Part shown: piece by piece, positions 5,455 to 56,534 of the stretch
How positions within the stretch are numbered: the stretch's first letter is position 1
How the letters are laid out: every line of letters begins with the position of its first letter
Source: Thermodesulfovibrionales bacterium
Lineage (GTDB): Bacteria > Nitrospirota > Thermodesulfovibrionia > Thermodesulfovibrionales > Dissulfurispiraceae
Reading direction: 5' to 3'
DNA length: 64,000 nt
Assembly (NCBI GenBank): GCA_030017995.1
Contig: JASEGS010000002.1
Span: forward strand, 21,463-85,462
Program-made: the position numbers and the translations under genes
Notes under the pieces: model-generated
Seen by the model: only the letters and a program-made list of their open reading frames with translations
Databases searched by the model: none
Told to the model about the DNA's origin: nothing

Positions 5455-6681
5455 ATGAAAAGATTTTTAGCAGTAGTTTTAGGCGCAATGCTTGTATTAG
5501 GCTTTGCAGTCAGTGCATTTGCTCAGGATGGTTTAAAGCTGAGCGGCTCACTAACAATGAGGGGCTGGTATTTAGATACCCTGGACAACAATTCTAATGA
5601 TGGAAATGGTGATGATGCTTACTATGACACACAGTTAAGGCTGATGTTTGATGCAACAGTCGGCAAGGCAAAGGCAGTGATTGAGCTGCAGAATGGTGCA
5701 GGCGGTTCATCAAAATGGGGCAGAAACACAGATTTCCAGGCTGCTGAAAATATGAACCTCAGCGTTAAACAGGCATATATCGCATTTCCTGTAGCAGGAC
5801 TCAACATCAGCGCTGGTCATCAGCTTTTGTCACTGGGTGTAAAGTCCTTCTTTGATGCATCAAAGGACGGCGCAAAGGCGATTCTTGTTACATATCCTTT
5901 TGATAAGAAGAATATAGTGGGCGTAGGCACAATAAAGGCACTTGATACTGATGTTCTTGCATCAACTGCAATTGCTGAAGACAAAGATATTTATTTTGGT
6001 CTTGCAAGCTTTGATCTCAACGGACATACACTCGGACTGAATGCAGCGGCTGTGATAGATAATGCGGTTGCTAAAAGCCACCTCTACAACTGGGCACTTA
6101 CACTTAACGGTAAGCTTGGCGCTGGTTTAGGTTACACACTCGCAGCAGATATCCAGACCGGCAAACAAGATGGAGCAAATGATAACAAAGGCTACCATGT
6201 AAGAGGCGCATTGAGCTATCAGGCAACACCTGAGCTTAACCTCAGCGCAGCGAGCATTTACTTCAGCGGTGAGGAGAGCGGCGCTGATGTAAAGAAATTT
6301 GTAACATTCCTTGAAGACACAAACTATGCAACATGGGTATTCGGTTACATGAACAGGGGCTTTGGTGCTACAATCGGAACAGGAACTCCTGCACCTGGCG
6401 GCTTCTGGTTTAACAGGCTTGCAGCAGACTATAAGGCGACAAAAGACCTTTCAGTTGGCCTTGCTTATATCAACATAAGAGGAACATATGATAGTTCAGT
6501 TAACGCAAGCAAGGAAGTAGGCAATGAAATTGACTTTACAATTGCTTACAATATATCAAAAGGTCTTACCTACAATGTTATAGGCGGTTTCCTGATGCCT
6601 GGTAAGGCATATGAAAATGCCAATCCTCTCAGGGATGATACAGCTATTGGTATCAGGCACGCACTTACACTCAGCTTCTAA
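5455..6681 (+). CDS. outer-membrane porin-like beta-barrel protein
   Basis: ATG at 5455 preceded by AAGGAG (5444..5449). Signal peptide MKRFLAVVLGAMLVLGFAVSAFA. Gly/Ala/Thr-rich alternating strands. C-terminal ...ALTLSF with terminal Phe. Confidence 0.7.
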   Translation: MKRFLAVVLGAMLVLGFAVSAFAQDGLKLSGSLTMRGWYLDTLDNNSNDGNGDDAYYDTQLRLMFDATVGKAKAVIELQNGAGGSSKWGRNTDFQAAENMNLSVKQAYIAFPVAGLNISAGHQLLSLGVKSFFDASKDGAKAILVTYPFDKKNIVGVGTIKALDTDVLASTAIAEDKDIYFGLASFDLNGHTLGLNAAAVIDNAVAKSHLYNWALTLNGKLGAGLGYTLAADIQTGKQDGANDNKGYHVRGALSYQATPELNLSAASIYFSGEESGADVKKFVTFLEDTNYATWVFGYMNRGFGATIGTGTPAPGGFWFNRLAADYKATKDLSVGLAYINIRGTYDSSVNASKEVGNEIDFTIAYNISKGLTYNVIGGFLMPGKAYENANPLRDDTAIGIRHALTLSF

Positions 6682-6684
6682 TTA

Positions 6685-6737
6685 GCTCGGAAGAGCAGAA
6701 GAGCGGAAGCTCAGAAGTTGAGAGGATAAGAAGTTCA
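6685..6737. repeat. half element of the GAGCAGAA octad family
   Basis: GCTCGGAA GAGCAGAA GAGCGGAA GCTCAGAA directly after the porin stop codon. No complementary arm follows. Confidence 0.7.
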
Positions 6738-6768
6738 GGCGGCGGGCATTAGCCCGCCGCCTTTTTTT
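6738..6768 (+). terminator. rho-independent terminator of the porin gene
   Basis: GGCGGCGGGC ATTA GCCCGCCGCC followed by a run of 7 T. Confidence 0.88.
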
Positions 6769-6819: not shown

Positions 6820-8463
6820 TTGAATTTGAGCGCTAAAGGCAAAATAGCAAAGGCTGCTGGAGCAATGTCAGCGGCGACCTTTATTAGCCGCATACTCGGC
6901 TATGTAAAGGACATGATACTGGCAAAGTTCTTTGGCGCCACAGGCGCAGCAGATGTTTTTTTTGTCGCCTTCAGGATCCCAAATCTATTGAGGGAGCTTT
7001 TTGCAGAAGGCTCCATGTCATCGGCATTTGTCCCTGTTTTGACAGAGTATCAGACAAAAGAGGGAAGGGATGAGGCGAACAGACTTGTAAGAGCAGCATT
7101 TATATTCATTGTCATCTTTGTCGGCATTGTATGTATTCTGGGGATCATGTTTGCCCCTGCGATTGTATCAGCAATTGCACCCGGATTTTTGAGCGATTCT
7201 GAAAAGTTTTCAGATACAGTGCTTCTTACGAGGATAATGTTTCCTTTTCTTTTGTTTATAAGCCTTGCATCTTTATTTATGGGCGCTCTTAACACAAGGG
7301 GCGTGTTTTTTATCCCAGCTTTAGCGCCTGCGCTTTTGAATGTTGTAACTATCGTTTCTGTCCTGACCCTTTCCATGCATTTTGTAAATCCAATTATATC
7401 AGTGGCAATTGGCGTAACAGCCGGAGGGCTTGTCCAGTTTCTTTTTCAACTGCCGTCATTTTTCAAACAAGGATACACTTTCAGAAGTCAGAAGCCAGAA
7501 GCCAGAAGCCAGAAGCCGAAAATCTCTGATTTAAACTCATCACTCATCACTCATCACTCATCACTGTCTTTCTGGCATCCGGGACTAAAGAGAATAGGCA
7601 TCCTCATTTTGCCTGCTACTGCCGGTATGGCAGTAGCTCAGATAAATATATTCATAAGCACTATCCTTGCATCATATCTTGCAGAGGGGAGTATTACATA
7701 TCTTTATTATTCGATGAGGCTGATACAATTCCCAATTGGCATATTCGGTGTTGCTATGGGAATGGCTGTGCTTCCAGCATTATCTGAGCATTCTGTGAAG
7801 GGAGAGACTGATAAACTTAAAGAGGATTTCTCTTTTGCCCTTCGCCTCCTGTTTTTTATAACTGTTCCTGCGATGATAGGACTTATCGCTTTGAAGGCTC
7901 CAATTGTAAGCACGCTTTTTCAGCGAGGCAAGTTTGGATATGATGCGACCATAGGCACATCAGATGCGCTTATGTTTTATTCATTTGGCATATGGGCAAT
8001 AGTGGGCGTTAGGGTTATCACCTCAACCTTTTATTCGATGCAGGATACAAAGACGCCTGTAAAAATAGCTGCCTTTGCAGTGCTTATAAATATTGTGATG
8101 AGCATCATGCTCATGGGTCCTATGAAGCACAACGGGCTTGCCTTTGCGAATGCCATTGCGTCGAGTTGTAATTTTGTATTGTTATTTTATTTTTTAAGAA
8201 AGAGGCTCGGGGGCATAGGCACAAAGAGAATAGCGCTCTGTTTTTCAAAGACATTGATAGCATCTTCAGTTATGGGGATTGCAGGGTGGCTTATTGTCAG
8301 GAGCGAGGTGTGGACATTAAGCGGTCATAGTCTCAAGAAGGCTGCATATCTCGGTTCAGCAATAATAATTAGCAGCGTAATATACCTGTTGCTGTCTTAT
8401 TTACTAAAGAGTGAAGAGATGAGGTATATTACAGATAAGATAAGGCAAAAACTTGGAATATAA
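6820..8463 (+). CDS. murJ: lipid II flippase MurJ (MviN family), with an in-frame repeat insertion
   Basis: 547 aa. N-terminal SRILGYVKDMILAKFFGA...FFVAFRIPNLLRELFAEGSMSSAFVP signature and many TM segments. TTG start. Confidence 0.9.
   Translation: MNLSAKGKIAKAAGAMSAATFISRILGYVKDMILAKFFGATGAADVFFVAFRIPNLLRELFAEGSMSSAFVPVLTEYQTKEGRDEANRLVRAAFIFIVIFVGIVCILGIMFAPAIVSAIAPGFLSDSEKFSDTVLLTRIMFPFLLFISLASLFMGALNTRGVFFIPALAPALLNVVTIVSVLTLSMHFVNPIISVAIGVTAGGLVQFLFQLPSFFKQGYTFRSQKPEARSQKPKISDLNSSLITHHSSLSFWHPGLKRIGILILPATAGMAVAQINIFISTILASYLAEGSITYLYYSMRLIQFPIGIFGVAMGMAVLPALSEHSVKGETDKLKEDFSFALRLLFFITVPAMIGLIALKAPIVSTLFQRGKFGYDATIGTSDALMFYSFGIWAIVGVRVITSTFYSMQDTKTPVKIAAFAVLINIVMSIMLMGPMKHNGLAFANAIASSCNFVLLFYFLRKRLGGIGTKRIALCFSKTLIASSVMGIAGWLIVRSEVWTLSGHSLKKAAYLGSAIIISSVIYLLLSYLLKSEEMRYITDKIRQKLGI
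7482..7565 (+). repeat. heptad-phased tandem repeat block inside murJ (84 nt, 12 heptads, 28 codons)
   Basis: CAGAAGT, then CAGAAGC x4, three degenerate heptads, then CATCACT x4. Translates to SQKPEARSQKPKISDLNSSLITHHSSLS. Confidence 0.9.
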
Positions 8464-51150: not shown

Positions 51151-51408
51151 ATGGGAGATGTAAAGCCAGACATTAAGATAGACAAAAAGATAAATATCAA
51201 GGGGCTTGTATGCCCCTATACATTTGTCAAAGCCAAGCTTGCAGTAGAAGATATGGAAGTTGGAGAGACGCTTGAGATACTTTTAGATTACGAAGAGGCA
51301 TCGAGGAGCATACCTAAGTCAATGGAAGACCATGGACAGAAGGTTCTTAAAGTTGAAAAGATAAATGACACTGACTGGATTATCCTCATTAAGAAGGAGA
51401 AGGAATAA
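51151..51408 (+). CDS. TusA/SirA-like sulfurtransferase
   Basis: 85 aa. GLVCPYTFVKAKLAVEDM matches the CPxP-type active-site Cys motif of the TusA family. Confidence 0.8.
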   Translation: MGDVKPDIKIDKKINIKGLVCPYTFVKAKLAVEDMEVGETLEILLDYEEASRSIPKSMEDHGQKVLKVEKINDTDWIILIKKEKE

Positions 51409-52209: not shown

Positions 52210-52247
52210 CTTTGGTTTTAGAAATAACCGGATGTTTGCAATTTTTA

Positions 52248-52256
52248 TGTTATAAT
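52248..52256 (+). promoter_or_regulatory. extended -10 element ahead of the inserted small ORF
   Basis: TGtTATAAT at 52248..52256. No good -35. Confidence 0.3.
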
Positions 52257-52307
52257 TCAAGTATCCGCAATGGATAAAGAATATTTTTTAGAACTCGGCA
52301 TTGAGCT

Positions 52308-52586
52308 ATGGTTTATGTTTATTTCGCTGCCGAAAAGGGCGAAATAAAAGGCTTTGTCGTTAAGCTGTTATGCGAGTTTGAGGGCGAATGGCATGAAGTT
52401 CTCAGATATGACAGCGGCCATGACTGCCCGCATAAAGATATTCTCGATATCAAGGGGGCTGTTATTAGAAAGATATGGTATGAGTATCTCGATAACAGTC
52501 AGGCATTAACAATGGCGATAACAGAGATAAAAGGAAGCTATGAGTTTTACAAAGAGAGGTATATGAAATGGCTAAAAAGAAACTGA
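52308..52586 (+). CDS. hypothetical protein (92 aa)
   Basis: The only sizeable ORF in the gap between the E1-like and JAMM genes. No family recognised. Confidence 0.4.
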   Translation: MVYVYFAAEKGEIKGFVVKLLCEFEGEWHEVLRYDSGHDCPHKDILDIKGAVIRKIWYEYLDNSQALTMAITEIKGSYEFYKERYMKWLKRN

Positions 52587-52782
52587 AAGAAAAGGAAATA
52601 TTGGAAGTACTCAAAAACGAAGGTTTTCAGGAAGTCGGTGCAGTCCAAAAAAAGTCAGGGTGGTATAAAAAGGCATCAAAAAGGCCGGCTTGTTTGACAG
52701 GTAAGTTGCATAAAATACAAGTCTCATAGTTGAGAGCCCTTTCCCGATGGCGGATGACTCTTTAATAGGAGGAGATAGTAGG

Positions 52783-52875
52783 AGGTCTTTACTTTTGCTA
52801 TTTTATTTATATATCAAAGCAATCAGTGTTCTTCAGATCAGTTTCTCAGTAAAATTACAGCAAAAATAAAGACCT
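52783..52875. repeat. 17-bp inverted repeat pair bounding an AT-rich 59-nt segment
   Basis: AGGTCTTTACTTTTGCT (52783..52799) versus AGCAAAAATAAAGACCT (52859..52875), 16 of 17 complementary. Confidence 0.6.
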
Positions 52876-52907
52876 GACCCCATTGCCCTGCCCTGACCCC
52901 ATTGCCC
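52874..52907 (+). repeat. 15-nt direct repeat x2
   Basis: CTGACCCCATTGCCC at 52874..52888 and 52893..52907. Confidence 0.8.
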
Positions 52908-52940
52908 AGGGGATGTGTCCCTATTTTAAGCTGGGCGCGT

Positions 52941-53348
52941 ATGATAGATAAGTTTATGATTATACCTCAATACATCTTTCACGAGATGCTTGCTCATTGC
53001 AGGGCCGGCTATCCCAACGAAGCGTGCGGCATTCTTGCGGGCAAGTGCAATGAAGTCTCGAGGATTTATAAAATGACCAACACAGAGAAATCTTCTGTGA
53101 ACTACTTCATGGATTCAAAGGAGCAGTTTCAGGTCATGAAAGATATAAGAGCGAACAATATCAAAATGCTTGCTATTTTTCACTCTCATCCCTCCTCAGC
53201 AGCATATCCGTCTGCAAAGGATATAAGCCTCGCTTTCTATGAAGATTCTGTTTATATCATAGTAAGCCTTATGGATAAAGAGCCTGTGACGAAGGCCTTT
53301 TCTATAAAAGGGGGAGATATAAAAGAGGTAGAGGTTGTGGTAAAGTAG
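52941..53348 (+). CDS. JAMM/MPN+ metalloprotease (Mov34 family)
   Basis: EACGILAG and HSHPSSAAYPSAKD (JAMM H-x-H-x7-S-x2-D). Start at 52941 or 52956; the tracked start at 52902 lies in repeat DNA. Confidence 0.85.
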   Translation: MIDKFMIIPQYIFHEMLAHCRAGYPNEACGILAGKCNEVSRIYKMTNTEKSSVNYFMDSKEQFQVMKDIRANNIKMLAIFHSHPSSAAYPSAKDISLAFYEDSVYIIVSLMDKEPVTKAFSIKGGDIKEVEVVVK

Positions 53349-53414
53349 TTTAATTTTATGTCATGGTTAGAGTAAAATATCTTTTTATTTCAGAAGGCTC
53401 GTGAGGAGGTGCTT

Positions 53415-54650
53415 ATGGGATATGTGAACGGACTTAAATGCAGAGAGTGCGGCAGGGAGTATCCTGTTGATCCTATATATGTCTGCGAATTTTGCTTTGG
53501 CCCGCTGGAAGCGGTGTATGACTATAAGAATATAAAGAGGGTTCTCACAAGGAAAAGCATAGAGAAAAGGGAGAAGAACCTCTGGCGTTATAAAGAGCTT
53601 TTGCCCATAGACGGGGAGCCGCAGGTGGGCTTGAAGTCTGGCTTTACGCCGCTGATCAAGGCGGATAACCTTGCGAAGGTTCTCGGAATAAAAGAGCTGT
53701 ACATTAAGGACGATACGGTCGCTCATCCTACTCTCTCTTTTAAAGACAGGGTCGTTGCAGTTGCCTTTACAAAAGCAAAGGAGTTCGGATTTGACACTGT
53801 TGCGTGCGCATCCACCGGAAATCTTGCACATTCAGTTTCAGCGCAAGGAGCAAAGGCCGGATTCAAAAGATTTGTTTTTATCCCCGCCACTCTGGAGCAG
53901 AGTAAGATAGTCGCTTCACTTGTTTACGAGCCGAATCTGATCGCGGTTGACGGAAATTATGATGAGGTCAACAGGCTTTGCAGCGAAATAGCTAATAAAT
54001 ACAAGTGGGCATTCGTGAATATAAACATCAGGCCGTTTTATGCAGAGGGATCCAAGACTATGGGGTTTGAGATTACAGAGCAGCTCGGATGGGAATCGCC
54101 GGACAATGTTGTAGTGCCGTGCGCGAGCGGCTCCCTGCTTACTAAGGTATGGAAAGCATTTAAGGAATTCAAGGAAATAGGCATATTAAAAGAGCTTAAA
54201 ACAAAGGTATTTGCGGCGCAGGCTACAGGCTGCTCGCCGATATCAGCTGCCATAAAGAGCGGGACTGATGTTATAAAGCCTGTCAAACCAGATACTGTTG
54301 CAAAGTCGCTTGCCATAGGCAATCCTGCTGACGGCTTTTATGCGACTCAAGTTGTTAGAGAGACCGGAGGATATGGCGAGGATGTTTCAGACGATGAGAT
54401 CATAGAGGCTATGAAACTGCTTGCAAAGACAGAAGGCATATTTGCGGAGACTGCTGGCGGGGTAACCATAGCGACTACCATAAAACTGATAGAACAGGGC
54501 AAAATAGGCGGGAACGAAACCACAGTGGCATGCATTACAGGAAATGGCCTTAAGACACAGGAGGCGCTTTTAGGGCATACTGCAGAGGTGCATCATATAA
54601 AACCTAATATGAATGCGTTTGAAGAGATACTTGAAAAAATTGCAGATTGA
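53415..54650 (+). CDS. threonine synthase-like PLP enzyme with N-terminal zinc ribbon (MetM-like candidate)
   Basis: ATG 5 nt after GGAGG. CRECG...CEFCFG ribbon. PLP lysine motif PTLSFKDR. Second ThrC-family gene in the window, directly followed by a ThiS/MoaD-like gene. Confidence 0.85.
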   Translation: MGYVNGLKCRECGREYPVDPIYVCEFCFGPLEAVYDYKNIKRVLTRKSIEKREKNLWRYKELLPIDGEPQVGLKSGFTPLIKADNLAKVLGIKELYIKDDTVAHPTLSFKDRVVAVAFTKAKEFGFDTVACASTGNLAHSVSAQGAKAGFKRFVFIPATLEQSKIVASLVYEPNLIAVDGNYDEVNRLCSEIANKYKWAFVNINIRPFYAEGSKTMGFEITEQLGWESPDNVVVPCASGSLLTKVWKAFKEFKEIGILKELKTKVFAAQATGCSPISAAIKSGTDVIKPVKPDTVAKSLAIGNPADGFYATQVVRETGGYGEDVSDDEIIEAMKLLAKTEGIFAETAGGVTIATTIKLIEQGKIGGNETTVACITGNGLKTQEALLGHTAEVHHIKPNMNAFEEILEKIAD

Positions 54651-54702
54651 TGATTTTAGATTGCAGATTTTTTCAATCATAAATCATAAGTCTTAAATCT
54701 GA
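54640..54702. repeat. heptad-phased palindrome spanning the stop codon of the ThrC-like gene
   Basis: TTGCAGA TTGATGA TTTTAGA TTGCAGA TTTTTTC AATCATA AATCATA AGTCTTA AATCTGA. Confidence 0.8.
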
Positions 54703-54725
54703 AATTGGGAATGGGAGGTGATAAT

Positions 54726-55007
54726 ATGGCTGTAAAGATAAGAATTCCGACACCGCTTCAGAGAATGACTCAGGGAAAGGAAGAGGTCGAAGGCAAGGCC
54801 GGGACTGTGATTGATCTTATTAATGACCTCGATGCCAAATATCCGGGCATTGCCGAAAGAATATCCGAAGGCGGAAAGGTCAGAAGATTCGTGAATATTT
54901 ATGTGAATGAAGAGGATATAAGATTTTTACAAGCAGAGCAGACGCCGGTGAAAGACGGGGATGAGGTTTCCATTATCCCTGCAATAGCCGGAGGCAGTAT
55001 TATTTAG
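54726..55007 (+). CDS. ThiS/MoaD-family sulfur-carrier protein with a C-terminal extension after Gly-Gly
   Basis: ATG 7 nt after GGGAGG. 93 aa beta-grasp size. Ends ...VSIIPAIAGG-SII. Confidence 0.8.
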   Translation: MAVKIRIPTPLQRMTQGKEEVEGKAGTVIDLINDLDAKYPGIAERISEGGKVRRFVNIYVNEEDIRFLQAEQTPVKDGDEVSIIPAIAGGSII

Positions 55008-55063
55008 ACACGGAGAAGGGGTGACACGGAGAAGGGGTGAATGTCTCCGCATCTCCGCTTCCC
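55007..55063. repeat. 16-nt direct repeat x2 followed by its partial complement
   Basis: GACACGGAGAAGGGGT x2 (55007..55038), then TCTCCGCA TCTCCGCT TCCC. Confidence 0.8.
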
Positions 55064-55080
55064 AGAAAATGGAGGTTTTT

Positions 55081-55317
55081 ATGAAAATGCGGGTTAAATT
55101 AACTTTTCCCCAACATCTTATTAAAGAGCCTGTGTTATTTACCATGGCAAAAAAGTTTGATGTGATGCCCAATATAAGAAGGGCAAGGGTAACAGATACT
55201 GTCGGAGAGATGGTGCTTGAACTTGAGGGAGAAGAGGATAACCTCAAAAAGGGCATGCAAACCCTGAAGGACCATGGCATAGAGGTCGAACTGATAGAAG
55301 GAGACGTAATAGAGTGA
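55081..55317 (+). CDS. stand-alone NIL domain protein
   Basis: ATG 5 nt after GGAGG. 78 aa. MKMRVKLTFPQHLIKEPVLFTMAKKFDVMPNIRRARV... resembles the NIL (MetN C-terminal-like) fold. Confidence 0.7.
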   Translation: MKMRVKLTFPQHLIKEPVLFTMAKKFDVMPNIRRARVTDTVGEMVLELEGEEDNLKKGMQTLKDHGIEVELIEGDVIE

Positions 55318-55422
55318 ATGAGTTAATGGGTTAAAGAGTTAATATGCAGTGAATAAAATTATTTTTTGTATTTTTATAACTCATATACCCATCCGCTCAT
55401 ATGCGCATTAACTAATTCAACG
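55312..55422. repeat. octad-phased palindrome filling the NIL-thrC spacer
   Basis: Left GAGTGAAT GAGTTAAT GGGTTAAA GAGTTAAT. Right TATAACTC ATATACCC ATCCGCTC ATATGCGC ATTAACTA. Confidence 0.8.
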
Positions 55423-55430
55423 GAGAACTT

Positions 55431-56534
55431 ATGGACATTGGAGAGTGTAATAGTTCGAGAATTATTTGGAAGGGGATTATTGAAGAATATAGAGAATTCT
55501 TTCCCGTTAGTGACAAAACACCGGTTGTAACTCTATCTGAAGGAAACACGCCTTTTATAAAGGCAGTTAATCTGCCGCAGAAGTTAGGCATTGATATTGA
55601 TTTATACCTTAAATTTGACGGCGCCAATCCCACTGGTTCTTTTAAGGACAGGGGGATGACTTTAGCCATCTCCAAGGCTGTTGAGTCAGGTTCAAAAGCG
55701 GTTATATGTGCATCAACTGGCAATACGTCTGCTTCTGCAGCAGCCTATGCAGCACGGGCAGGAATAAAGGCAATTGTTGTTATCCCAGAGGGCAAGATAG
55801 CAATGGGGAAGCTTGCTCAGGCGCTGGTGCATGGCGCCTATGTATTGCAGATTGATGGTAATTTTGATGTTGCTTTTAAAATGGTAAGAGAGGTGGTGGA
55901 GCAATATCCTATAACCCTCGTTAATTCTTTAAATCCCTTTAGGATAGAAGGGCAGAAGTCAGCAGCTTTTGAGGTCTGTGATCAGCTTGGATGCGCCCCG
56001 GTTTATCATGCGCTGCCAGTAGGCAATGCAGGGAACATCACAGCTTATTGGAAGGGATATAAGGAATATAGGAACGCTGGAGTAATTCAAAGACTGCCGA
56101 AGATGCTCGGCTTTCAGGCAGCAGGCGCTGCTCCTATAGTTTTTGGGCACCCAGTGGAAAAACCTGAGACTATTGCAACTGCCATCAGAATTGGAAATCC
56201 TGCAAGTTGGAAAGGGGCGGTCTCTGCGAGGGATGAATCAGGAGGCCGTATAGATGCAGTAACTGATGATGAAATATTAAGTGCGTACAAGCTCATAGCA
56301 ACATCTGAAGGGATATTCTGCGAGCCTGCATCAGCAGCATCTGTGGCAGGTGTTATAAAATTATATAAGGAAAGTTATTTTGAAAAGGCCAGAGAAGATG
56401 AAAGGACAATTGTATGCACTTTAACAGGCAATGGTCTTAAAGACCCTGATACAGTATTTAAGGTTGCTGACGGTGCAATAAAGGTTAAAGCGGAATTCAA
56501 TGAGGTAAGAAAGATAATAGAGAGGATACTGTAA
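55431..56534 (+). CDS. thrC: threonine synthase
   Basis: 367 aa. [17 protein letters not shown]-lysine motif. Short ThrC type. Confidence 0.93.

Follow-up and report, generated by a model that had tools for sequence, protein, structure and literature searches.

Three consecutive gene junctions in a sulfur-carrier operon of a Thermodesulfovibrionales bacterium are filled by tandem arrays of short units facing inverted units. We propose that these elements (S1 to S3) are probably DNA-level insertions or expansions of repeats from a diverse class with fast turnover, any effects on the mRNA being a by-product. Such an opposed tandem array would comprise n units of 7–8 nt, a short loop and n inverted units, and the class appears to populate this metagenome-assembled genome (MAG) as well as a subclade of the Thermodesulfovibrionales. 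The best reading of the elements is that they are selfish or neutral repeat DNA, located at the only permissive sites. The window analysed is a stretch of 64,000 nucleotides (assembly GCA_030017995.1, contig JASEGS010000002.1).

S1 to S3 lie within one co-directional operon, each in the interval from a stop codon to a free Shine-Dalgarno (SD) site and 5–20 nt 5' of the SD-ATG (Table 1). Pfam assignments and the sequence bear out the preliminary description of three elements at these coordinates and in this gene context, as well as its view of a single architecture built from unrelated units. Its statement that every spacer of the module is filled holds for the run from the ThrC-like gene through ThiS and NIL to ThrC; it does not hold for the three junctions upstream in the module (ThiF to DUF7718, DUF7718 to JAB and JAB to ThrC-like), where no 7/8-nt phased palindrome is present.

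Table 1 Genes, array arms and retained ribosome-binding sites around S1 to S3 (window coordinates).
Feature	Position	Strand	Basis
ThrC-like PLP enzyme, N-terminal zinc ribbon	53409-54650	+	Pfam PALP 6.6e-68
S1 left arm, four heptads TTGCAGA/TTGATGA/TTTTAGA/TTGCAGA, GATTNNN family	54640-54669	+	TRF; direct and inverted repeat search; family pattern
S1 right arm, four NNNAATC heptads AATCATA/AATCATA/AGTCTTA/AATCTGA	54675-54706	+	TRF; sequence; empty/filled comparison
Retained SD GGGAGGTGA and thiS ATG	54713-54728	+	Sequence; empty-site comparison
ThiS/MoaD-family sulfur carrier, C-terminus ...AGG-SII*	54726-55007	+	Pfam ThiS 1.6e-18; translation
S2 left arm, GACACGGAGAAGGGGT x2, two octad types alternating	55007-55040	+	TRF score 68, 100% match; direct repeat search
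S2 right arm, TCTCCGCA/TCTCCGCT(TCCC), complementary to CGGAGA cores	55044-55063	+	Direct/inverted repeats; fold
SD GGAGG and NIL ATG, outside S2 hairpin	55071-55083	+	Sequence; comparison with L017/L013 empty sites
NIL-domain protein, C-terminus ...GDVIE*	55081-55317	+	Pfam NIL 7.9e-18
S3 left arm, four GAGTTAAT-type octads, TGA stop 55315-55317 in first unit	55312-55343	+	TRF; direct/inverted repeats
S3 central spacer, own small A/T-rich hairpin	55344-55376	+	Fold; inverted repeat
S3 right arm, phased TAACTCAT/ATACCCAT/CCGCTCAT/...CATTAACTAATTCA	55377-55422	+	Direct/inverted repeats; fold
Retained ribosome-binding site ACGGAGAACTT-ATG, thrC start	55420-55433	+	Sequences; spacer lengths in relatives
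Threonine synthase ThrC	55431-56534	+	Pfam PALP 1.4e-68

S1 (54640-54706) starts 8 nt 5' of the TGA stop (54648-54650) and contains the last codons and the stop of the ThrC-like gene, which ends ...EKIAD* here and ...KKIGR* at the empty sites of relatives. Its arms are separated by a TTTTC loop and pair mainly via the conserved GATT/AATC core; TRF reports the right arm as 54675-54699 (period 7, 3.6 copies). An AAATT at the end of the right arm repeats the AAATT at 54637-54641, just 5' of the element. The GGGAGGTGA region corresponds to the GGAGGTGA-N5-ATG seen at empty sites, in which the upstream stop lies inside GGAGGTGA (empty S1 sites read ...AAAATCGGGAGGTGA-N5-ATG). The first base of S2 (55007-55063) is the last base of the carrier TAG stop. 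Its period is 16 nt on the left and 8 nt on the right, so that the scheme of N units followed by N complementary units is only approximate. S3 (55312-55422) consists of the octads GAGTGAAT/GAGTTAAT/GGGTTAAA/GAGTTAAT (left array in TRF 55307-55343, period 8), a 33-nt spacer and a phased complementary arm, with an outer inverted repeat TGAATGAGTTAATG/CATTAACTAATTCA that takes in the TGA stop. In the empty site of two relatives (L013 and L014), ACGGAGAACTT-ATG directly follows the stop codon.

Both kinds of repetition exceed expectation when each element is compared with 2000 dinucleotide shuffles. Phased direct 5-mer pairs number 17, 17 and 11 in S1, S2 and S3 against 0.6, 0.06 and 0.5 expected (p<0.0005 each), while inverted 5-mer pairs number 19, 9 and 28 against 11, 1.8 and 12.7 (p=0.04, 0.0015 and 0.002). 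A register test gave 0.85 for the best in-phase alignment and 0.80 for other registers, units within arrays being too alike to discriminate.

The homologous junctions were compared across 80 Thermodesulfovibrionales species. Junctions are shorter than 30 nt in 43 of 79 species at S1, 48 of 74 at S2 and 24 of 53 at S3, and more than half of the species have no element at each junction. In the closest relatives they span only 4–14 nt, and the stop codon lies within or next to the SD site that follows. Around a quarter reach at least 60 nt (18, 19 and 20 at S1, S2 and S3), about half of which (10, 10 and 9) contain 7/8-nt arrays of many different units. Sister genomes with almost identical ThrC-like proteins have S1 junctions of 86 nt (L015) and 4 nt (L017), and the sisters L032 and L034 carry different unit families at S2 and S3. 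The elements are polymorphic for presence at exact sites, orthologous elements differ in copy number, and one unit family is swapped for another between near-identical sisters. These comparisons agree with the expectation of stable positions and changing unit sequences, and the junctions turn over faster than 1–3% protein divergence. The AAATT duplication of S1 recurs in L032, and target-site duplications are inconsistent across other loci.

The opposed-array class is genome-wide and not special to sulfur-carrier genes. TRF reports 302 rows of period 7 and 140 of period 8, against 35–47 and 42–51 in three dinucleotide shuffles, with the period multiples 14, 16 and 21 also enriched. This corresponds to 337 non-redundant period-7/8 arrays versus 27 in a shuffled genome, far above the level at which a genome scan would have spoken against the class. 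A complementary partner lies within 120 nt of 61–119 arrays (0–4 in the shuffled genome), and matches are preferentially reverse-complementary: 34 for heptads against 6 reverse-only and 13 complement-only, and 27 for octads against 1 and 3. In total 217 canonical 7/8-mer unit types were found. Arrays occupy 119 of 1717 gene junctions (gene starts in the genome-wide counts being taken from a crude ORF caller), and the run of three filled junctions observed here is close to chance expectation (1 observed, 0.53 expected, p=0.39). Intragenic arrays number 147, in 109 genes, and have coding sequence on either side, e.g. in loops of P-type ATPases that hold different heptads in the orthologues; reading frames stay open throughout, and copies in ATPase, ComEC and MurJ genes are in frame. 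The association with stop codons suggested earlier does not extend to the genome, with 14 arrays starting within -10 to +3 of a stop codon versus 10.7 ± 2.9 expected (not significant), and can be explained by ancestral junctions of only 4–14 nt. Loss of mismatch repair was considered as a cause and rejected, given that MutS, MutS2 and MutL are present. The genome encodes four to five Y1_Tnp (IS200/RAYT-like) transposases, flanked by other inverted repeats or 9–10-nt arrays and by no 7/8-nt arrays; no enzyme mobilising the elements was identified in the genome.

Individual unit families occur in multiple copies within the genome. The GATTNNN family, to which S1 belongs, combines a conserved core with variable positions and is found at 20 loci, against 1 in a shuffled genome, with +/- pairs at 6 loci besides S1; a four-unit GATTNNN pattern has 20 matches here (control 0), and 0–9 matches in each of 20 relatives, with none in most. 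A full-length copy of S1 (84% identical) lies on another contig (C33:16381-16442), where it likewise separates a stop from an SD. No second whole copy of S2 or S3 exists in the genome, so that growth in situ and import are inseparable for these two. Within single operons, families are reused at S2 and S3 in L016 and at S1 and S3 in L034, and S2 and S3 of L032 have an identical core and loop, which indicates copy-paste. The earlier proposal of a common mechanism, as opposed to one mobile sequence, is thus supported by the many unit types and needs amending in that each type is itself multi-copy.

These observations can be accommodated by an ancestral operon with little space between its genes and probably with translational coupling, in which the thrC-like stop would have lain inside the thiS SD, and the stops of thiS and NIL would have preceded the starts of NIL and thrC by 12–14 nt and 11 nt, respectively. 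Presumably 65–100 nt can be tolerated without gene loss only between a stop (or last codons that are dispensable) and the SD that follows; these few bases being the only non-lethal room, the elements would sit there. Elements inserted there would bring their own stop codon, and the SD-ATG 3' of them would stay intact. Unit copy number may then shift by replication slippage, while the opposed arm may derive from inverted duplication or template switching, or arrive with the element. Families could spread from site to site by copy-paste, possibly guided by microhomology and leaving the flank duplicated over a few bases, as with AAATT at S1. By-products in the mRNA might include a 20–30-bp imperfect intercistronic hairpin, lost stop/start coupling and altered segment stability.

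A different view is that selection maintains S1 to S3 as intercistronic RNA hairpins (3'-exonuclease barriers or RNase III sites, as for REP or Correia elements) which set stability or translation of the thrC-like, thiS, NIL and thrC segments. In E. coli operons, REP hairpins make the mRNA upstream of them more stable, and the placement of S1 to S3 in one co-directional operon, the strong plus-strand hairpin of S3 (z -3.7) and z-scores below -2 in 61% of the array-bearing long junctions of relatives are consistent with such a role. We nevertheless consider it unlikely, as over half of the species are without an element at any given junction, very close sisters differ, and the relatives' array-bearing junctions fold equally well on both strands (sense -2.75, antisense -2.64). 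S1 is no more stable than shuffles (plus-strand z -0.8), S2 has its better fold on the minus strand (z -3.2, against -1.1 on the plus strand), some homologous junctions carry direct arrays without a hairpin (e.g. S3 of L016 and L052), and the same class is found in frame inside genes. The sense strand does fold better in 23 of 32 intergenic elements of the genome (p=0.001 within the set), but ordinary spacers display the same bias (201 of 344), above which the elements do not clearly rise. Rfam covariance models gave no hit to the elements at or above the gathering score, two chance matches to snoRNA models staying below it, and no rho-independent terminator was seen in the hairpins of S1 to S3; one weak match (55057-55076) overlaps the SD. 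There is no sign of selection on sense-strand RNA structure, and the indirect evidence leans against it; sense-better folding of intergenic elements leaves room for weak selection that may act at the RNA level.

More tentatively still, a sequence-independent generator peculiar to the subclade, either a replication/repair quirk or an unrecognised mobilising enzyme, could rebuild opposed arrays at stop/SD junctions and protein loops, the hairpins being exploited as mRNA punctuation. Operon stoichiometry would then evolve by swapping hairpin cassettes.

Distinctly improbable is a purely local origin without mobility, by which polymerase slippage with a preference for 7–8 nt acts in place, template switching mirrors the array, and recurrent units reflect mutational or selective convergence. 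This would fit the more than 200 canonical unit types, the uniqueness of S2 and S3 as whole elements, and arrays that begin in the last gene codons, including the CAAAATN units of L028 and L034, which resemble the conserved gene end GAAAATT. Over-representation of heptamers has been put down to slippage (PMC4692102, citing Mrazek 2007). However, units of AAAATNN type are present at S3 as well, next to a different gene end, and local growth is difficult to reconcile with the shared core and loop at two L032 junctions, the S1 copy on another contig or the lineage-specific burst of GATTNNN.

That the arrays are sites for a protein reading 7–8-nt periodic RNA or DNA motifs and regulating translation of the next cistron, analogous to the proposal for Beggiatoaceae TAACTGA repeats (PMC4679880), is very improbable: the arrays lie close to the SD-ATG, and their units combine a conserved core with variable positions as a binding-site array would, yet hundreds of unrelated unit types would require many readers, the same arrays lie within coding regions, and sisters swap families at the same junction. 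An assembly or amplification artefact merits next to no credence, for although searches for reads or a second assembly of the same organism found none and a metagenome scan returned only relatives (at most 83% identity), the architecture recurs at the same junctions in dozens of assemblies made independently in different projects, and frames stay open through the intragenic arrays.

With repeat insertion or expansion as the preferred reading, the case illustrates that a closely coupled biosynthetic operon can be invaded again and again within the few nucleotides separating a stop codon from the ribosome-binding site that follows, and it gives no indication of a regulatory device particular to the sulfur-carrier pathway. 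For annotators, this accounts for unusual C-termini, displaced stops and overlong spacers in MAGs of Nitrospirota. It also gives repeat biology a lineage with hundreds of heptad and octad unit types, usually in hairpin-forming opposed pairs, and a good system for asking how opposed arrays arise.

No literature on this phenomenon was found for Nitrospirota or Thermodesulfovibrio. The elements consist of head-to-tail units of 7–8 nt in at least 2–3 copies, over-represented relative to shuffled sequence, as is the case for long simple-sequence repeats (LSSRs). REP elements share a conserved consensus of 20–40 nt, an imperfect palindrome tagged GTAG/CGTC, and come with a cognate RAYT; tandem arrays do not make up their arms. 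Like REP/BIME, REPIN and Correia/MITE elements, the present elements are palindromic, intergenic and 3' of stops within operons, with families that are multi-copy and lineage-specific, and transcribed hairpins of this kind can alter mRNA stability; unlike in REP classes (PMC3733652), no GTAG/CGTC consensus or RAYT linkage is seen, and no consensus is common to S1 to S3 or shared with other arrays. MITEs combine terminal inverted repeats and a target-site duplication in multi-copy families of fixed length; here the AAATT duplication is present at S1 and in L032 and is not consistent elsewhere, only S1 has a further copy, and lengths follow unit number. Rickettsia palindromic elements form consensus families of about 100–150 nt and tolerate in-frame insertion in genes. 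The intragenic copies of the present class resemble them in this respect; Rickettsia elements lack tandem-unit arms, and S1 to S3 are intergenic. TAACTGA heptamers of Beggiatoaceae, cyanobacteria and Bacteroidetes, for which a regulatory role was proposed (MacGregor 2015, PMC4679880), likewise form arrays just 5' of start codons or overlapping upstream stops. Their units contain stops in all three frames, so that the forward orientation is possible at gene ends only; they differ in having a single unit sequence in nearly always direct arrays.

The closest known cases are the inverted heptamer arrays of Xanthomonas and cyanobacterial STRR. STRR comprise several heptamer families per genome, in operon intergenic regions and with variable copy number. 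The likeness drawn earlier to STRR-type arrays is apt in these respects; STRR families are few and defined, opposed-array hairpins are not their hallmark, and their heptamers are unrelated to the units of this Nitrospirota host. For Calothrix/Nostoc, a report of three heptanucleotides is cited in PMC4692102. In Xanthomonas, GGGAATC heptamers form 70–75 close pairs of oppositely oriented arrays per genome that are capable of forming stem-loops (Rehm et al. 2015, PMC4692102). These repeats, too, are tandem heptamers, often heterogeneous, with a conserved core and variable positions, and are mostly intergenic, keeping position while length and sequence vary between close species (PMC4692102). They constitute one G-rich, G-quadruplex-forming family in another phylum, whereas the present units (TTGCAGA/AATCATA, GACACGGAGAAGGGGT, GAGTTAAT) belong to hundreds of mostly A/T-rich types, octads and 16-mers included, with many copies in frame inside genes. 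In both systems an array is paired, a short distance away, with a second one that repeats its unit in the opposite orientation.

The repeat elements S1, S2 and S3 lie in a co-directional met/thr operon of a MAG of 1.70 Mb and 42% G+C, in which the window spans C22:21463–85462 and which related loci place in Thermodesulfovibrionales, Nitrospirota. The operon order is homoserine dehydrogenase, a small ORF, ThiF, DUF7718, JAB, ThrC-like PLP enzyme, ThiS-family carrier, NIL protein, ThrC, phosphoglycerate-mutase-like enzyme and aspartokinase, with the elements occupying the three junctions downstream of the ThrC-like gene. Sequence inspection, TRF and a repeat search confirmed an element at each. 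The preliminary description had placed a different phased palindrome in every spacer of the sulfur-carrier module; this holds for the S1–S3 junctions only, and the module junctions at 52210–52307, 52587–52901 and 53349–53408 contain no 7/8-nt phased palindrome. Overall, its observation stands, and its interpretation (a common generating mechanism and possible intercistronic RNA hairpins) is supported in part. In this otherwise biosynthetic module, the gene for DUF7718 is overlapped by a 53-codon ORF; the two, located between ThiF and JAB, may represent an inserted cassette.

Features of the operon in the window, with element statistics (5-mer pairs, observed/expected; folding-energy z) and orthologous junctions by length
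Feature	Position	Junction (nt)	Phased direct	Inverted	z, + strand	z, - strand	Loci scored	<30 nt	>=60 nt	Long with 7/8-nt arrays
Small ORF	51151-51408									
DUF7718 gene + 53-codon ORF	52308-52729									
JAB/Mec-type protease	52902-53348									
ThrC-like PLP enzyme	53409-54650									
S1 (ThrC-like>ThiS)	54640-54706	75	17/0.6	19/11, p=0.04	-0.8	-1.3	79	43	18	10
ThiS-family carrier	54726-55007									
S2 (ThiS>NIL)	55007-55063	73	17/0.06	9/1.8, p=0.0015	-1.1	-3.2	74	48	19	10
NIL protein	55081-55317									
S3 (NIL>ThrC)	55312-55422	113	11/0.5	28/12.7, p=0.002	-3.7	-1.8	53	24	20	9
ThrC	55431-56534									

Phased direct and inverted 5-mer pairs were counted against 2000 dinucleotide shuffles per element, and for each element the observed direct count was reached by 0/2000 shuffles. 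Folding energies vary more among S1–S3 than repeat counts do. The main pairing between the S1 arms is a conserved GATT/AATC core, and the S2 period is 16 nt in the left arm and 8 nt in the right.

The elements belong to a class that is far commoner in the genome than in shuffled sequence. TRF returned 302 period-7 and 140 period-8 rows (35–47 and 42–51 in shuffled genomes), with periods 14, 16 and 21 likewise enriched and 217 canonical 7/8-mer units. With redundancy removed and at least 2.5 copies required, 337 arrays were found versus 27 in a shuffled genome; a partner, defined as two complementary units within 120 nt, accompanied 61 (strict) to 119 (relaxed) of the 337, versus 0–4 in the shuffled genome. 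True reverse-complement matches far exceeded reverse-only and complement-only controls. Coding sequence lies on both sides of 147 arrays, in 109 genes, the remainder being intergenic or at gene boundaries. Within the window, P-type ATPase, ComEC, MurJ and homoserine dehydrogenase are interrupted in frame by the class; in P-type ATPase orthologues from other genera, the heptads found at the same two loops are different ones. The sulfur-carrier module is not special in this respect, since 119 of the genome's 1717 gene junctions contain arrays, with 10 adjacent filled junctions (7.9 expected) and a single run of three (0.53 expected, p=0.39).

Non-complementary adjacent arrays of equal period also exist (window 7482–7565 in murJ; C8:11357–11431 in the genome), for example (CAGAAGC)5 then (ACTCATC)4, or (GACACGGA)n then (CACCCATC)n. 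Unit complementarity is no better than chance in roughly a third of 55 adjacent array pairs.

Orthologous junctions were surveyed at 80 species-level loci, only 27 of which hold any array. Arrays are nearly missing from short junctions (weak TRF rows: S1 0, S2 2, S3 1), and junctions are mostly short in the more distant clades Thermodesulfovibrio, Sulfobium and Magnetobacterium. An empty S1 site reads ...AAAATCGGGAGGTGA-TAAAATGG, with the thrC-like stop within the thiS Shine-Dalgarno site (SD); at S2 the closest relatives have the thiS stop 12–14 nt upstream of the NIL ATG, and in several others the two overlap (ATGA); at S3 the empty site is ...GAATAA-ACGGAGATTTT-ATG. We take the packed junctions of the closest relatives to be ancestral. 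In the window, every SD-ATG module is kept 3' of its element, and upstream genes have new final codons and stops (KKIGR* to EKIAD*; GG-K*/GG-EQ* to GG-SII*). The latter carrier terminus (54990–55007), which in relatives may also be GG-SN*, carries residues beyond Gly-Gly, and this would fit a requirement for the JAB/Mec-type protease to expose the GG end.

Unit sequences were found to differ between species at the same junction, as the preliminary description had envisaged. S1 units include AAAATGAG, AAAATGC, TAAGCAG/TTACTGC, ATAGGCG/CCTATAG, ATGGGCA/ATAGCCT and GTATACA/TGTCTAC. The ThrC-like tree places the window in a well-supported 21-row clade within which junction states are scattered: S1 measures 86 nt in locus L015 versus 4 nt in locus L017, with almost identical ThrC-like proteins; the unit families of L032 at S2 and S3 are not those of L034; and L013 and L067 differ at S3.

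Signals of both family spread and in-situ change are present. S1 is built of GATTNNN and NNNAATC heptads. The genome contains 20 loci with GATTNNN x3 (1 in the shuffled genome), of which 7 combine the two orientations within 150 nt, and GATTNNN x4 gives 20 matches (control 0; 0–9 in 20 relatives). An S1 copy on contig C33 (84% over 62 nt) likewise lies between stop and SD, and the S2 octad GACACGGA recurs at three further loci. In L032, S2 and S3, 400 nt apart, are the same element with identical core (...GCGTGCAGCGTTGTAGCGATAAGATAAGAAAAAATAAACGCAATAACGCCATAAC...) and loop, which clearly indicates a local copy-paste event. One family is also reused within the operon in L016 (S2/S3) and L034 (S1/S3). 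On the side of in-situ change, unit number differs between orthologous elements (L027 versus L049, L028 versus L034), and S2 and S3, as whole elements, are each single in the genome. An AAATT 5-nt flank duplication at S1 in the window and in L032 is inconsistent at other sites. The L052 S3 is a direct array only (GAAAATT x8.4, no hairpin, z +0.7); hence, the class is not obligatorily palindromic.

No mobilising gene linked to the 7/8-nt arrays was found, the flanks of the genome's Y1 transposase genes holding other repeats; mismatch repair is intact. The C29 Y1_Tnp gene (5711–6679) is flanked by arrays of 9–10-nt units, CGATACAGCA x2.8 (5681–5708) and CACAATACG x2.4 (6730–6751). The DUF7718-JAB spacer contains a different repeat (52783–52907), a 17-nt inverted repeat AGGTCTTTACTTTTGCT / AGCAAAAATAAAGACCT 59 nt apart, then CCTGACCCCATTGCCC x2. 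Its left end has 24–26-nt matches at C11:79098, C6:2851 and C44:71159, the last directly upstream of a Y1_Tnp gene, and it may be a RAYT/REP-like element.

At the RNA level, sequence and fold analysis of S1–S3 revealed no SD sequestration by the hairpins, no Rfam match and no terminators. Of the intergenic elements, 23/32 form the better fold on the sense strand (p=0.001), compared with 201/344 ordinary array-free spacers. Array-free co-directional spacers are themselves biased genome-wide (sense more stable in 201, antisense in 143, p=1.6e-5), and this general bias must therefore be subtracted in any strand test. In relatives, array-bearing junctions have equal z-scores on the sense (-2.75) and antisense (-2.64) strands, and some hold direct arrays only, with no fold. 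Together with rapid gain and loss, these observations argue that palindromy is a DNA-level property and mRNA effects incidental. It is plausible, as a hypothesis, that inserts uncouple translation or change segment stability.

A literature search found no report of such repeats in Nitrospirota. The opposed-array architecture itself is already known from Xanthomonas, with 70–75 inverted heptamer pairs per genome, conserved in position and variable in length (PMC4692102, which also cites bacterial heptamer over-representation and slippage as explanation), and TAACTGA repeats are described at the ends and starts of genes (PMC4679880). Unlike these systems, the arrays presented here comprise hundreds of unit types including octads, invade coding loops and are replaced very fast at fixed operon junctions.
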